Part shown: positions 4,969-11,389 of the stretch, one piece after another
How positions within the stretch are numbered: position 1 is the stretch's first letter
Layout of the letters: each line of letters opens with the position of its first letter
Assembly (NCBI GenBank): GCA_039591655.1
Contig: JBDHDE010000067.1
Location: forward strand, 1-12,828
Direction of reading: 5' to 3'
Length of the DNA stretch: 12,828 nt
From: Gemmatimonadota bacterium
GTDB taxonomy: Bacteria; Gemmatimonadota; Gemmatimonadetes; Gemmatimonadales; GWC2-71-9
Translations under genes and position numbers: made by a program
Notes under the pieces: model-generated
Databases searched by the model: none
What the model saw: the letters and a program-made list of their open reading frames with translations, nothing else
Told to the model about the DNA's origin: nothing

Positions 4969-6771
4969 CTAGTAGTCCACCGGCCGCAAGTAGCTCTCAC
5001 CTATGGTAGTGCTGCTCACCATGGCGACGGTGGGCAACCTGCGCTTCCAGTGCGTGGAGTGTAACCGCCGGCTCACCAGCTCGACCTCGGCGGCCGTGAA
5101 CCCGCGGGCAACGATCCGGTGCTGCTTGAGCCCCAGCAAGAGCCAGTGGAGAATGCGGTCTGCCTTCTCATAGCTGATTCCCAAATCGGCCTCGTCGGTC
5201 TGGCCCGCCACGAGGTCGGCGGTGGCCGGCTTGTCCACGACGGCGCCGGGGACGCCCAGGTGCCCGGCCAGGGCGATGACCTGGCTCTTGAACAGGTCGC
5301 CCAGCGGGTTCACCGGCGGGGAGTCGTCGGCGTGCCAGGTGAAATAGCCCAGCAGACGCTCGGTCTTGTTTCCGGTGCCCAGGGGGAGCGCGCCGTACTT
5401 CGCCGAGAGATCGAACAGCGTGATCATCCGCATGCGCGCCATCACGTTGCCGCGGCGGGTGGGATCGGCATCCCTGTCTGCCGCTTCCAGGTAGGCGTCC
5501 ACCGCCCCGCTGATGTCCACCGTGAGAAGTTCGATCCCCAGCTCCTGCGCCACCAGCTCGGCGTGCTCCAGGCTCTCCTTGCTCGACGTCCTGTACGGCA
5601 TCCGCACGCCGATCACGTTCCCGTTGCCGAGCGCACGGGTCGCGAGGACGGCTGTGACGGAGCTGTCCACGCCGCCCGAGAGCCCCACGAGGCCCTTCTC
5701 GAACCCGCGGCGGCGCACCACCTCGTCACGCAGGAACGCCACCAGCCATTGCTCGGTGAGGGCGGCGTCAATGACCATGGGATCGCCGCCCTCGCTGGGA
5801 GCCAGGATCGCATGCTCGACCTTTGCGGCGGGCTTGGCGGTGCGGGGACACTCGTCCTCTACGTCGTACTCCAGCGGCGGCGCCTGACCCTCGGATCCCT
5901 CCAGCAGGTTGAGGAACTGCATCTCGAGATCGGCCAGGAGCGGCTGCTCGGAGCGCGCCCGGGTGATCTCGTCCTGCTGGACCGTGGCGGTGAGGAGCGC
6001 CTCCTCGAACAGCGGTCCGCGCACCAGCACCCCGCCGTGGGGATCGACCACCAGGGAGCTTCCCTGGAGGCCCTTGCCTCCCTCGAACCCGCCGAGCTGC
6101 GCAAAGGTCACGTAGAGCCCGTGCTCGCTCGCAATCTGCCGGGCCAGGATCTCCCACCGTCTGACGCTGGCCGGCCGCTCCCGGTCCTCACCCTTCTCAT
6201 GGTCTGGCGAGATCCCCCGGGCGGGGGAGGCGCTGGGGACGATGAGGAGTTGGGCGCCGTCCAGTGCGGCGAGGGTGGGAACGATGGTGTGCCACGCGTC
6301 CTCGCATATAGCGATCGCCGCCCGGCCCCACGCGGTGTCGAACGCCCGCACCGAGTGGCCGTGGTCCACGAACCGCTCTTCGTCGAACAGCCCGTATGTC
6401 GGTAGAAACACCTTGCGGTGCACGTGCCTGATCCCCGGCTCGGAACCGCCCAGCGTGGCGTACAGCGCCGAGTTGTAGTAGCGGTTGCGGAACTCCTCGT
6501 AGAATCCAATGACCACATCCACCGGCGGGGCGCCGGCCAAGGCGTGCTGCGCCGAGAGATCCCGGAAGACTGTCCCCGCCGTGACGGCGAGCTCCCGCAC
6601 CCCGCCCTCGAGGAAGTAGCCGGTGAGCGCGGCTTCGGGGAACACGACCAGCTGTGGTGGCTCATCCAACCCGGCTGCCTGCGCCAACACGCCGCCCACC
6701 CGCCGCAGGTTCTCTGCGTAGTCGCCCTTGGTGGGGCGAGTTTGGGCGATCATCAGACGGAGGTCGGGCAT
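4969..6771 (-). CDS. nadE: Glutamine-dependent NAD+ synthetase (nitrilase-family glutaminase domain fused to synthetase domain)
   Basis: N-terminal C-N hydrolase triad contexts FPEAAL, RKVFLPTYGLFDEERF and ICEDAW. C-terminal PP-loop GLSGGVDS, GNVMARMRM, GTGNKTE.LLGY, PLGDLFK and KPATADL..GQTDE. Confidence 0.96.
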   Translation of the reverse strand: MPDLRLMIAQTRPTKGDYAENLRRVGGVLAQAAGLDEPPQLVVFPEAALTGYFLEGGVRELAVTAGTVFRDLSAQHALAGAPPVDVVIGFYEEFRNRYYNSALYATLGGSEPGIRHVHRKVFLPTYGLFDEERFVDHGHSVRAFDTAWGRAAIAICEDAWHTIVPTLAALDGAQLLIVPSASPARGISPDHEKGEDRERPASVRRWEILARQIASEHGLYVTFAQLGGFEGGKGLQGSSLVVDPHGGVLVRGPLFEEALLTATVQQDEITRARSEQPLLADLEMQFLNLLEGSEGQAPPLEYDVEDECPRTAKPAAKVEHAILAPSEGGDPMVIDAALTEQWLVAFLRDEVVRRRGFEKGLVGLSGGVDSSVTAVLATRALGNGNVIGVRMPYRTSSKESLEHAELVAQELGIELLTVDISGAVDAYLEAADRDADPTRRGNVMARMRMITLFDLSAKYGALPLGTGNKTERLLGYFTWHADDSPPVNPLGDLFKSQVIALAGHLGVPGAVVDKPATADLVAGQTDEADLGISYEKADRILHWLLLGLKQHRIVARGFTAAEVELVSRRLHSTHWKRRLPTVAMVSSTTIGESYLRPVDY

Positions 6772-8483: not shown

Positions 8484-9056
8484 CTACGGATCGACTGCAC
8501 CCGTCGGGGGCGTGGTCCCCGGTGGCGCCGAATCCTGCGGCACTGTGACTTGCGGCCGCCCGTCGTCTGACACACCGCCGATCCACCGCCCGAGAGCAAC
8601 CGAGATGGCGATCAGCACGATGATGAGGAGTGCCCTCAGCAGTTGCCGCTTGAGGTCCGGCGCGAAGCGCTGTTTCAGGTCGGCCACTTCCTGGCGCAGC
8701 TTGTTCTTCTCCGCGGCCTTCTCGACGACCTGCACCAGGTGAGACATCTCCACGGGCTTCGTCAGGAAGTTTTCCGCCCCGCTCCGCATCGCCTCCACCG
8801 CCGCCTCGATCTCGCCGTATGCCGTCAGCATGATCACGGTGGCCTTCTTGCGGCGCAGCTGTTCGAGCACCTCCAGCCCGTTCATCCCCGGCATGTACAG
8901 ATCGAGCACGGTCACGTCAGGCCACACCTCGTTCCAGGTGGCGACCCCCTCCTTGCCCGACGACGCACGGTAGACCTGATAGCCGATGCGCTCGAAGTAC
9001 TCCCCCAGTGCGCGCAGGACGTCGAGGTCGTCGTCGATGAAGAGGATCTTGGGCAC
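8484..9056 (-). CDS. Response regulator receiver protein with C-terminal transmembrane helix
   Basis: KILFIDDD, phospho-acceptor VLDLYMPGMNG, IMLTAYG and FLTKP, followed by a coiled-coil linker, the hydrophobic ALLIIVLIAISVALG and a Pro/Thr-rich tail. No DNA-binding or AAA+ domain. Confidence 0.88.
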   Translation of the reverse strand: MPKILFIDDDLDVLRALGEYFERIGYQVYRASSGKEGVATWNEVWPDVTVLDLYMPGMNGLEVLEQLRRKKATVIMLTAYGEIEAAVEAMRSGAENFLTKPVEMSHLVQVVEKAAEKNKLRQEVADLKQRFAPDLKRQLLRALLIIVLIAISVALGRWIGGVSDDGRPQVTVPQDSAPPGTTPPTGAVDP

Positions 9057-9074: not shown

Positions 9075-9890
9075 CTAGAAGAGTTCTCCCTGCTCCTGCA
9101 ACGTCTCGGGCGCCACCGGCTCCTGCCCCACCAACTGCTGAAGGTCGCGCGCGCTGTGGGGTGCGTGGCCCTGATAGTGATTGCTGAAGTAGCCGTAGAT
9201 CGTCGAAACGCGCTCGCCTAGCCTGGCGATCACGCTCCCCCAGAGTTCCAGCTCCCGTTCCCGCTCGAGCTGGGGATACGAGAAGTCCGCAAGCCGCTTC
9301 CCGGTACCCGACCACCGCACGTAGCCGAAGTCGGCCGTCGGCTCGATGGCCAACTCCGCCATCATGTCCCGCGGGATCCACCGGCCGTCCACCAACACAA
9401 GAGCTACACCCCTGGCCCGGAGGAACTCGCTGGTCGCCGGCGTCACCCATCCCGGGTGCCGGAACTCCATTGCCCAGCGGACTCCAGCCGGCAGACCTTC
9501 GAGGAACTGCTGCAGGATGGTCAGATTGCTTCGCGTGGGCCGGAAGGCCGGGCTGAGCTGCACCAGGAGCGGGCCCAGACGTTCCTCCAGCGGGCGCACT
9601 CGGTCCACGAACCGCCGCAGCACCCGCCCGGTATCCACCAGCCGCCGCTCGTGGGTGATCTCCTGCGGTACCTTGAGTGCGAACCGGAAGTCCGCGGGCA
9701 CACTGTCGTTCCAGCTCTGCACCGCGGGGTCCGGTGGCAGGCCGTAGGACGTCGACTCGATCTCCACCGTGGGGAAAGCGCGGCTGTACACGCTCAACAT
9801 CCCCGCAGGCTTGGTGCCCTGCGGGTAGAACGTGCCGACCCACGCTCCGTAATCCCATCCCTGGGTGCCGAGCAGGACGTCTGCCTTCAT
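9075..9890 (-). CDS. DUF72 (YecE-like) domain-containing protein
   Basis: GTQGWDY..W.G.FYP, F.TVEI.ST.Y..P, FRFALKVPQEITHE, LGPLLVQL.P.F, EFRH..W, YVRW and YGYFSNHYQGHAP. Confidence 0.93.
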   Translation of the reverse strand: MKADVLLGTQGWDYGAWVGTFYPQGTKPAGMLSVYSRAFPTVEIESTSYGLPPDPAVQSWNDSVPADFRFALKVPQEITHERRLVDTGRVLRRFVDRVRPLEERLGPLLVQLSPAFRPTRSNLTILQQFLEGLPAGVRWAMEFRHPGWVTPATSEFLRARGVALVLVDGRWIPRDMMAELAIEPTADFGYVRWSGTGKRLADFSYPQLERERELELWGSVIARLGERVSTIYGYFSNHYQGHAPHSARDLQQLVGQEPVAPETLQEQGELF

Positions 9891-9899
9891 CTCAGTGTC

Positions 9900-10277
9900 T
9901 CACTCTACTCTGCGCGCCCAGTACATCCGCATCTCCGTTATCTCGCCGTCCGCCGTCTCGCAAAACAGCGCCCCGCGCACGTCCACCGGCTCGCCGCTGC
10001 GGCGTCTCCGGAACGTGCACTTGAACTCCGTCGCGAACCACGGACCGGCCGCGTATACCTCGCCGCACCGGAAGGAGACCTCCGACTGCTCGAAGGGAAG
10101 ATCCTTCCAGTAGTCCGAAATCGCCCCCCGCCCCGTGATCGGTGTGGCGAAGGGCTCGGGGACGAACACGGCGTCCCCGGAAAACACTCCGGCTATTCCC
10201 GCGGCGTCGCCCTTTTCCCAGCTCTCGCCGAAGCGCTCGATCAGGATCGCGTAGCGGGTCCTCGCCTCGTCAGGCAT
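9900..10277 (-). CDS. SnoaL-like / NTF2-fold protein
   Basis: F.ESWEKGDA..IA..FS.DAVF...PF..PI.GR.AI..YW and a C-terminal G.I.EMR.YW, typical of SnoaL-like domains. Confidence 0.85.
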   Translation of the reverse strand: MPDEARTRYAILIERFGESWEKGDAAGIAGVFSGDAVFVPEPFATPITGRGAISDYWKDLPFEQSEVSFRCGEVYAAGPWFATEFKCTFRRRRSGEPVDVRGALFCETADGEITEMRMYWARRVE

Positions 10278-10315
10278 GCGGCCGCGCTCGCCGTGAGATC
10301 GCCATCGGTGAACCG

Positions 10316-10398
10316 CTACCCCGACCCGAACTCGGTCTCGTAGTCCTGCATAGCCGGGGATGCGGCTTCCAACGGTAGAACGGCGGTGGAAACGTCAT
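10316..10398 (-). pseudogene. ppa: Internally deleted inorganic pyrophosphatase remnant
   Basis: ATG 10398 gives MTFPPPFYRWKPHP (to 10357). A different frame gives AMQDYETEFGSG* (10354-10316, 11 of 12 codons ending G/C). These resemble my recollection of the N-terminus (..FP.PFYRWRPHPWHG) and C-terminus (AAM.DY..EFG) of a family I PPase subgroup. The catalytic core is absent. Confidence 0.68.
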
Positions 10399-10439
10399 CT
10401 CAGTGCGCCCGTGGCTCAGTAGCGGCGGACCCGCATACG

Positions 10440-10445
10440 TATCTT
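10440..10445 (+). promoter_or_regulatory. Putative -10 box (TATCTT) of a leaderless nucleoside hydrolase transcript
   Basis: TATCTT-AACAA-GTG-ATG with no SD. It is the same hexamer as before nadE. Confidence 0.6.
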
Positions 10446-10450
10446 AACAA

Positions 10451-11389
10451 GTGATGGCCGGCACCCAAGCAACGGTCCCGATCGTCATCGATACCGACCC
10501 GGGTATCGACGACGTAGTGGCTCTCGCCCTCGCCGCGCGTTCGCCGGAGCTCCGAGTGCAGGCGGTTACGACAACCTACGGCAACGCCACCCTGGCCGCG
10601 ACCACACGAAACGCCCGGGCGGCGCTGGAGCTGGCTGGAGCTGGCGGGACTCCCGTCCATCCGGGAGCCGACCGGCCGCTGGCGAGATCACTGGTCACGG
10701 CGCCCGAGACCCACGGTCCGACTGGAGTGGGCCACGCGCCGGTGGCTGCCGAGAGGCCGGTCACTCCCGACCCCACGGTCTTGCTGGATGTCCTCGAAGA
10801 GGTGGACTGGCCCGTGACGCTGGTGACCCTGGGGCCACTCACCAATCTGGCGCATGCGGTTGAGGTGGGCGGTGAGTTCGTGCGTCAGCGCGTGGCGCGG
10901 CACATCGGCATGTTCGGCAACATCCACGAGCGGGGGAACACGAACCGCTGGGCAGACTTCAACGCGTGGAGCGATCCCGAGGCCGCGGATCGGGTGCTCG
11001 GCGCCGGCCTGGCCACCGAGATGGTCGGCCTGGACGTAACCCGCCGAATGGAGCTCTCGGCCGGCGCCGTGGAGCACCTCGCGAGCGTATCCGATCCCCT
11101 CACGTCATGGCTGGGTCGGGCTCTCCGGTTCTACGTGCAGTTCCACCGCTCGCAGGAGCGACTCGACGGTTGCGTGGTGAACGACGTACTGCCGCTGGGT
11201 GAGCTGATCGCGCCGGGCCTTCTCACCCTGGCGGACCTCCGATTGGCGGTGGACCTTGGGGAGGGAGAGCACCGCGGGCGCACGGTGGAGCGCCCCGACG
11301 GCGTCCCCACGCGAGTGGCGCTGGAAGTGGACATCCACAGGATGCGGGAGCTGCTGGGGAGGGTGTTCGGAGACGACTGGGCAGGGTGA
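10451..11389 (+). CDS. Nucleoside hydrolase (IU-NH family)
   Basis: Ca-binding DTDPGIDD, TTTYGN, GADRPL, ETHG..G.G, TLGPLTNLA, FNAWSDPEAA..V and MVGLDVT. The start is GTG 10451 or ATG 10454. Confidence 0.93.
   Translation: MMAGTQATVPIVIDTDPGIDDVVALALAARSPELRVQAVTTTYGNATLAATTRNARAALELAGAGGTPVHPGADRPLARSLVTAPETHGPTGVGHAPVAAERPVTPDPTVLLDVLEEVDWPVTLVTLGPLTNLAHAVEVGGEFVRQRVARHIGMFGNIHERGNTNRWADFNAWSDPEAADRVLGAGLATEMVGLDVTRRMELSAGAVEHLASVSDPLTSWLGRALRFYVQFHRSQERLDGCVVNDVLPLGELIAPGLLTLADLRLAVDLGEGEHRGRTVERPDGVPTRVALEVDIHRMRELLGRVFGDDWAG

Follow-up and report, generated by a model that had tools for sequence, protein, structure and literature searches.

The locus

The window considered here, that is, the whole stretch of DNA analysed, comprises 12,828 nucleotides and is contig C67 of the genome of a marine-sediment Gemmatimonadota bacterium (called G000 in the following; 3.3 Mb, 95% complete). 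The features of interest are listed below in window coordinates.

8484..9056, minus strand: response-regulator receiver protein, intact
9075..9890, minus strand: DUF72 protein (PF01904), intact
9900..10277, minus strand: SnoaL-like protein (PF12680), intact, the downstream neighbour of ppa
10270..10398, minus strand: frameshifted 42-codon open reading frame starting at the old ppa start, its stop overlapping the SnoaL start
10316..10356, minus strand: 3' remnant of ppa, consisting of 2 nt of codon 192, codons 193-204 (AMQDYETEFGSG) and the stop TAG
10352..10367, no strand: 5-bp inverted repeat AGCCG/CGGCT, judged to be due to chance
10356..10357, no strand: deletion junction with about 532 nt out, spanned by contigs
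10357..10398, minus strand: 5' remnant of ppa, codons 1-14, with the translation MTFPPPFYRWKPHP
10441..10446, minus strand: TAAGAT, a -10-like hexamer upstream of ppa, found in 8 of the 10 genus loci examined
10451..11389, plus strand: divergent nucleoside hydrolase, Rih-like, below the NCBIfam cut-offs, intact

Elsewhere in the window (4969-6771, minus strand) there is a 600-aa open reading frame combining a nitrilase domain with NAD synthetase, by appearance a glutamine-dependent, PPi-producing NadE.

The two remnants are the ends of one gene. The peptide MTFPPPFYRWKPHP corresponds to residues 1-14 of the intact 204-aa PPase of the congener G007, with 11/14 identical positions, and AMQDYETEFGSG, which is read together with its stop from 10354-10316 in another frame, corresponds to residues 193-204, with 12/12 identical. 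A six-frame search of the 3.3-Mb genome gave a single occurrence of each of the motifs FP.PFY.W.PHP and A[MIL].DY..EFG, and the two are only 2 nt apart. The initial annotation had described minus-strand peptides joined out of frame at 10357/10356, had assigned them to opposite ends of one PPase, and had ascribed the arrangement to a single internal deletion that took nearly all of an FP.PFYRWRPHPWHG-type ppa. All of this is reproduced here, the remnant having a length of 83 nt compared to 615 nt for an intact ppa, which corresponds to a loss of ca 532 nt (ca 87%). A genuine deletion in a family I soluble pyrophosphatase gene has left these 83 bases as its scar.

While the remnant matches the two termini of intact congener proteins of the NF001886/PRK00642 type (PF00719), it differs from the family in being frameshifted and in having none of the motifs VKYE, YGFIP, DGDPLD, DDKI and RHYF..YK. 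The catalytic D-x-D-x-x-D motif and the full-length frame are both missing (83/615 nt), and without any family I motif and with a shifted frame the window copy cannot be an enzyme. In addition, Lys11 of the 5' remnant stands at a position where Arg is otherwise invariant (119/119 homologues with the PHPW motif, out of 120 examined). A profile search gave no PF00719 match anywhere in the G000 genome, and a relocated or second ppa was found there neither by HMM nor by tblastn. The 42-codon reading frame has no Pfam match and is likely a by-product. Taken alone, the window scar is an ordinary pseudogene remnant.

The deletion had also been thought to preserve the promoter and the start of the gene. 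The start codon and the -10-like hexamer have indeed stayed in place, but a scan of 10250-10520 for sigma-70 promoters and terminators passed no full promoter, nor any terminator.

The junction

The evidence for the junction consists of assembled contigs. Gapless contigs run across it in three of the four runs of one study (X1, X2 and X3; in X4 the site is not covered), X1 and X2 both being possible sources of the window DNA. It is also spanned in one of four runs from other studies, namely by an X5 contig that covers 10289-10458 with zero differences (X6-X8 have no cover). The junction is identical in these four contigs, which come from four samples and two studies, and the runs that span it are sediment metagenomes. 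The spanning contig of X3, with a depth of 3.2, has three differences to the window in 360 nt. One of them, T10367C, turns Lys11 back to Arg and cuts the inverted repeat to 4 bp. At this depth it could be an error; if real, it would mean that the deletion is older than the split of the two strains and that Lys11 is a later decay.

That the junction is an assembly collapse and that the cell still has an intact ppa is extremely improbable: contigs rather than raw reads underlie the junction, and a 198-nt X3 contig departs from the window at 10356 and runs on as intact-ppa-like sequence, but the sequence of this contig deviates from that of the window on either side, and its translation resembles the end of a G010-type gene, so that we read it as a co-occurring relative, the middle of ppa is absent from the G000 genome (HMM, tblastn), there is no repeat on which a collapse could occur, and the spanning contigs of the two studies reject it.

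As to the inverted repeat, which the initial annotation had noted as bracketing the junction, its coordinates are right but its significance is that of chance, since 11.7% of randomly chosen points in G000 are likewise flanked by a 5-bp repeat (1.9% if one arm has to begin at the point itself). With this chance of 0.12, and with one strain variant shortening the repeat, we reject it as the cause of the deletion. If the flanking codons were those of the conserved Trp and Ala, as the ancestral junction bases inferred from relatives suggest, the junction would have no microhomology.

Relatives with and without ppa

The SnoaL neighbour could be located in all 11 genomes of the genus. Directly upstream of it, an intact 204-aa ppa is present in five of the ten congeners (G002, G005, G007, G008 and G010), which confirms the expectation that relatives would have an intact gene between the SnoaL and the nucleoside hydrolase genes. 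In the profile search, PF00719 is over its cut-off in 5/10 congeners, and the protein of G008, the only one scanned with NF001886, scores 297 bits against a cut-off of 247 and passes PF00719 too. All five intact proteins retain the VKYE, YGFIP, DGDPLD, DDKI and RHYF..YK motifs. One subclade (L014/L021 = G005, L018/L022 = G010, L024 and L025) has extra genes between the nucleoside hydrolase gene and ppa, namely an ester-cyclase/SnoaL-like gene and, in G005, also a bacterioferritin-like gene; the site acquires genes repeatedly.

The gene is missing in the other six of the 11 genus genomes (G000, G001, G003, G004, G006 and G009). At the locus of G001 no trace of ppa was found. G003 has an in-frame stub of 14 codons (8 N-terminal and 6 C-terminal), G004 has lost the start and keeps the last 22 codons, and G006 and G009 have one common scar in which 2 codons are left. 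We have examined 160 further loci, several of them from duplicates of genus genomes, and read 24 by eye; new scars turned up at two metagenome loci, L062, where the last 15 codons are left, and L074, which has two cuts. One genus-level clade has, accordingly, six distinct ppa scars at one locus (that of G000 and five others). In 19 of the 160 loci, outside the ppa-bearing clade, the nucleoside hydrolase gene lies within ca 165 nt of SnoaL with no ppa match.

Where ppa is retained, its dN/dS is 0.057-0.139 (10 pairs), compared to 0.112-0.211 for DUF72. Lineages that keep the gene thus hold it under strong purifying selection, and for them it is not neutral. Among the 11 genus genomes we saw intact genes or deep deletions only, and no full-length copy with a frameshift or in slow decay. 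Such a pattern would be expected if the activity were selected against, but also if neutral deletion were fast.

The scars allow us to consider also the option that the remnant is retained for a function, either because the 42-codon reading frame couples translation to SnoaL or because the repeat guided a programmed excision. Wherever a scar has kept the ppa start, as is the case for the three of G000, G003 and G006/G009, the stop of the residual reading frame does overlap the SnoaL start. However, the three frames past the G000 junction all end harmlessly (in the native stop, in the overlapping stop or in a SnoaL fusion), so that such an overlap is often expected, and translational coupling through the mini-ORF is rejected on this ground. 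In G004, L062 and L074 the ppa start is gone altogether, each lineage has its own breakpoints, and the repeat is a chance one. A functional scar is for these reasons very unlikely.

Number of losses and origin of the gene

Trees were built on four proteins that flank the locus; rpoB is found in only 7/11 genomes and was therefore left out as a species-tree marker. In the flanking-protein tree, the intact G007 is sister to G003/G004/L062/L074 (98), and the intact G010 groups with G006/G009 (100). A topology that unites all seven scar rows in a single clade is rejected with a p-AU of 2e-5, which implies more than one loss of ppa. Joining G000 to the G003 group is rejected weakly (p-AU 0.036), the groups having been named after the first tree was seen. 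Two independent losses are firm, and three are likely. Within the G003 group, the four scars (G003, G004, L062 and L074) may go back to a single initial cut that was trimmed further afterwards.

The ppa proteins of the genus form one group (96/89), placed with modest support among homologues labelled Acidobacteriota, Scalindua and Pseudohongiellaceae. At 18 other loci of the family with a low-scoring ppa, mostly of the same type, a window neighbour lay beside ppa in 0/18. Since the outgroup loci have no ppa at this site, the gene was probably gained and then repeatedly lost. The simplest reading is that the gain took place after G001 had branched off; possibly, the outgroups instead lost ppa long ago and tracelessly.

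PPi handling in G000 and its relatives

G000 has an intact membrane PPase (G000:C13:32891-34882), with a score of 1013 for NF001961 against a cut-off of 926. Its gene follows, by reading, peptidyl-tRNA-hydrolase-like and ribosomal-protein-like genes. The protein contains GNTTAAIG, in which the Ala at the K+-dependence site is identical to that of the K+-dependent Vigna enzyme. Its ADIFES segment aligns with ADLLES of 4AV3 (chain position 255), where Vigna has Gly; position 255 is presumably Glu246 of Thermotoga, provided that the construct carries 9 extra residues. The gate Glu is therewith at the Thermotoga position, one turn from that of H+-PPases. Both this position and the GNTTAAIG Ala are shared with the K+-dependent Na+-PPase of Thermotoga maritima (4AV3; NF001961), and according to the rule in the accessible text of PMC9408878 they mark a K+-dependent Na+ pump, which is the ion specificity that we predict from the sequence for the G000 enzyme.

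A membrane PPase is present in 10/10 congeners, with or without ppa, and in 39/41 relatives, so it has not arrived as a substitute. The proposal that a membrane H+-PPase replaces the soluble enzyme in this bacterium is accordingly borne out as far as the presence of a membrane PPase goes, but this enzyme carries the Na+-pump signature and is no newcomer. The premise that a soluble PPase is normally essential does not describe the norm here: 81 of the 201 genomes of the family have a ppa match and 120 have none, and among the most complete ones the count is 70/164. The genome search suggested for alternative enzymes gave the membrane PPase only, with no other ppa and no ppaC; for the latter (family II), no DHHA2 match was found in the 95% complete G000 genome, which has two DHH matches, located in open reading frames of 806 and 352 aa.

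Other enzymes could also act on PPi. PPDK is found in 11/11 genus genomes, G000 included. At G000:C4:47921-48571 there is a HAD protein that scores 211.7 bits for NF009804, against a cut-off of 218. Such PpaX-like proteins, PpaX being what we take to be the label of NF009804/PRK13288, are found just under this cut-off in 38/41 relatives (Gemmatimonadales), and only 1/41 passes it. The nearest solved relatives of the C4 protein are labelled phosphoglycolate phosphatase. The PpaX-like protein may supply soluble PPase activity, and it is a candidate for an unrecognised soluble PPase of the order. Regarding PFK, no match was found in G000, as opposed to 10/10 congeners. The site of the PPi-type PFK, a type assigned by what we assume to be the diagnostic GGDD/PKT motif, falls in an assembly gap of G000: both neighbour genes of the congeners' PPi-type PFK break off at contig ends there (C140:3279 and C98:7288). 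The PPi-conserving metabolism considered in the initial annotation is in line with PPDK and the Na+-type membrane PPase, but this argument is weakened by the PpaX-like protein, which possibly hydrolyses PPi.

Other hollowed genes

To scan for further scars, G000 was compared with 2.4 of the 2.87 Mb of G005 using a home-made gene caller. There were 383 testable genes, and both positive controls were recovered. Of 18 candidates on the G000 side, 14 were discarded (5 at contig ends, 4 beside N gaps of G005, and 5 diverged full-length or partly aligned homologues), which leaves four scars: ppa, pfkA, alkaline phosphatase and an M14 peptidase. Three of the four are in phosphate-handling genes. The ATP-type pfkA scar (G000:C29:~600-715, locus L296) consists of an inner piece joined to the last ca 16 codons, a short stretch being common to both parts where they meet. 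In the alkaline phosphatase (PF00245) scar (G000:C14:~16045-16220, minus strand), the signal peptide and the first ca 37 codons are out of frame with the last ca 17, and the gene is intact in 9/10 congeners. Of the 845-aa M14 peptidase gene (G000:C34:~21920-22290), a 5' piece with an in-frame stop is left and the remainder is absent. G005 seems to carry a few scars too, although its 210 scaffold gaps blur the count; 20 of its 32 candidates lie no farther than 700 nt from an N gap, the other 12 stand as candidates, and the G005 rate is a rough one. The similar scars of other genes indicate that hollowing is an ordinary route of gene loss in G000.

Beside the pfkA scar (G000:C29:355-600, locus L296) there is a small gene with a C-G-V-TGA-G-Y-K read-through pattern, the TGA being conserved in G001-G004 and G007; we take it to resemble a selenoprotein of the Rdx/SelT type.

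G003, G004 and G007 lack the ATP-type pfkA at this site, and G006 and G009 have it. Its presence thus crosses the state of ppa, and a coupling of the two losses is not supported, as G007 has ppa without pfkA and G006/G009 the reverse.

Concerning the mechanism of the deletion, adjacent and divergent Ku and LigD genes are present at G000:C15:60846-64410. This makes end joining a candidate for the origin of the blunt ppa junction. Ku is found in 8/11 genus genomes, ppa-positive and ppa-negative alike, and Ku/LigD fails as a discriminator of the ppa state.

Interpretation

The reading that we favour, and consider probable, is the loss of a gained, redundant ppa beside a membrane PPase whenever selection relaxes. 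The gene would have been inserted between the promoter region of the nucleoside hydrolase and the SnoaL-DUF72-regulator genes after the split of G001. Once selection on ppa was relaxed, deletions restricted to the gene could persist because the shared promoter region (TAAGAT) and the neighbours were spared. Biosynthetic PPi would now be hydrolysed by the membrane enzyme with export of Na+, and would also be consumed by PPDK and perhaps by PPi-PFK, with the PpaX-like HAD enzyme as a possible further route of hydrolysis. The loss in G000 and its relatives is thus likely explained by the predicted Na+-pumping membrane PPase already removing PPi.

Another option considered was that the loss itself was selected, PPi being routed to the Na+-pumping membrane enzyme, PPDK and PPi-PFK so as to save energy in poor sediments. 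The genus has undergone at least two, likely three, independent losses of an otherwise strongly conserved gene, its membrane PPase has the Na+-pump signature, PPDK occurs in 11/11 genomes, and the runs that span the junction come from sediment, all of which speaks for this option. The ATP-type pfkA of G000 is scarred too, as one of three phosphate-related scars, and there are precedents: as far as the accessible text of the papers goes, both Syntrophus aciditrophicus (PMC4992975) and, likewise, Clostridium thermocellum (PMC8863071, PMC8575175) do without a soluble PPase. However, the pfkA and ppa losses are uncoupled (G007 versus G006/G009), the ppa-positive congeners equally have the membrane PPase and PPDK, and the PpaX-like HAD may sustain soluble hydrolysis. 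Hollow scars are found also in other genes of G000 and in G005, and the PPi-PFK site of G000 lies in an assembly gap. We therefore regard selection for the loss as possible, but on balance unlikely.

The two precedents share with G000 that a membrane PPase and PPDK are present and that no family I or II PPase gene is found. In the text available to us, PPi levels or enzyme activities were measured in those organisms, whereas the picture in G000 is drawn from sequence. Unlike what that text describes, G000 has a PpaX-like HAD, and its loss is recent and repeated, with scars beside sister species that keep ppa.

Deletional bias in bacteria is known to leave deletion-type pseudogene remnants. The ppa scar is alike in being a non-functional gene cut to short ends between intact neighbours, with more scars in the same genome; it differs from the usual case in that six different ppa scars from the same locus, within one genus-level clade, can be compared side by side. 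In the literature searched (titles and abstract starts, with few subscription journals covered), no report of ppa loss in Gemmatimonadota was found. The scar is a fresh instance of a known phenomenon, and its value lies in the six scars and the matched sister species.

Within a single genus, the locus preserves a record of how one gene was probably gained, held by purifying selection and deleted several times, and its scars can still be read. The customary view of ppa as essential needs correcting: in this group the gene is an on-and-off addition to a membrane PPase that nearly all members have. Drift versus energy saving in the loss of soluble PPase is debated in print (PMC8575175, in its accessible text), and the matched sister species let this be asked.

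Finally, one can speculate, although we consider it doubtful, that the soluble PPase is an energetic switch in these marine Gemmatimonadota, gained and kept under strong selection where fast removal of PPi pays and repeatedly selected out in energy-poor sediment, where PPi would then power a Na+ pump, PPDK and PPi-PFK. If this were true, the sister pairs G007 versus G003/G004 and G010 versus G006/G009, together with G000, in which the ATP-type pfkA and alkaline phosphatase are hollowed out as well, would be natural replicates for PPi as an energy currency.
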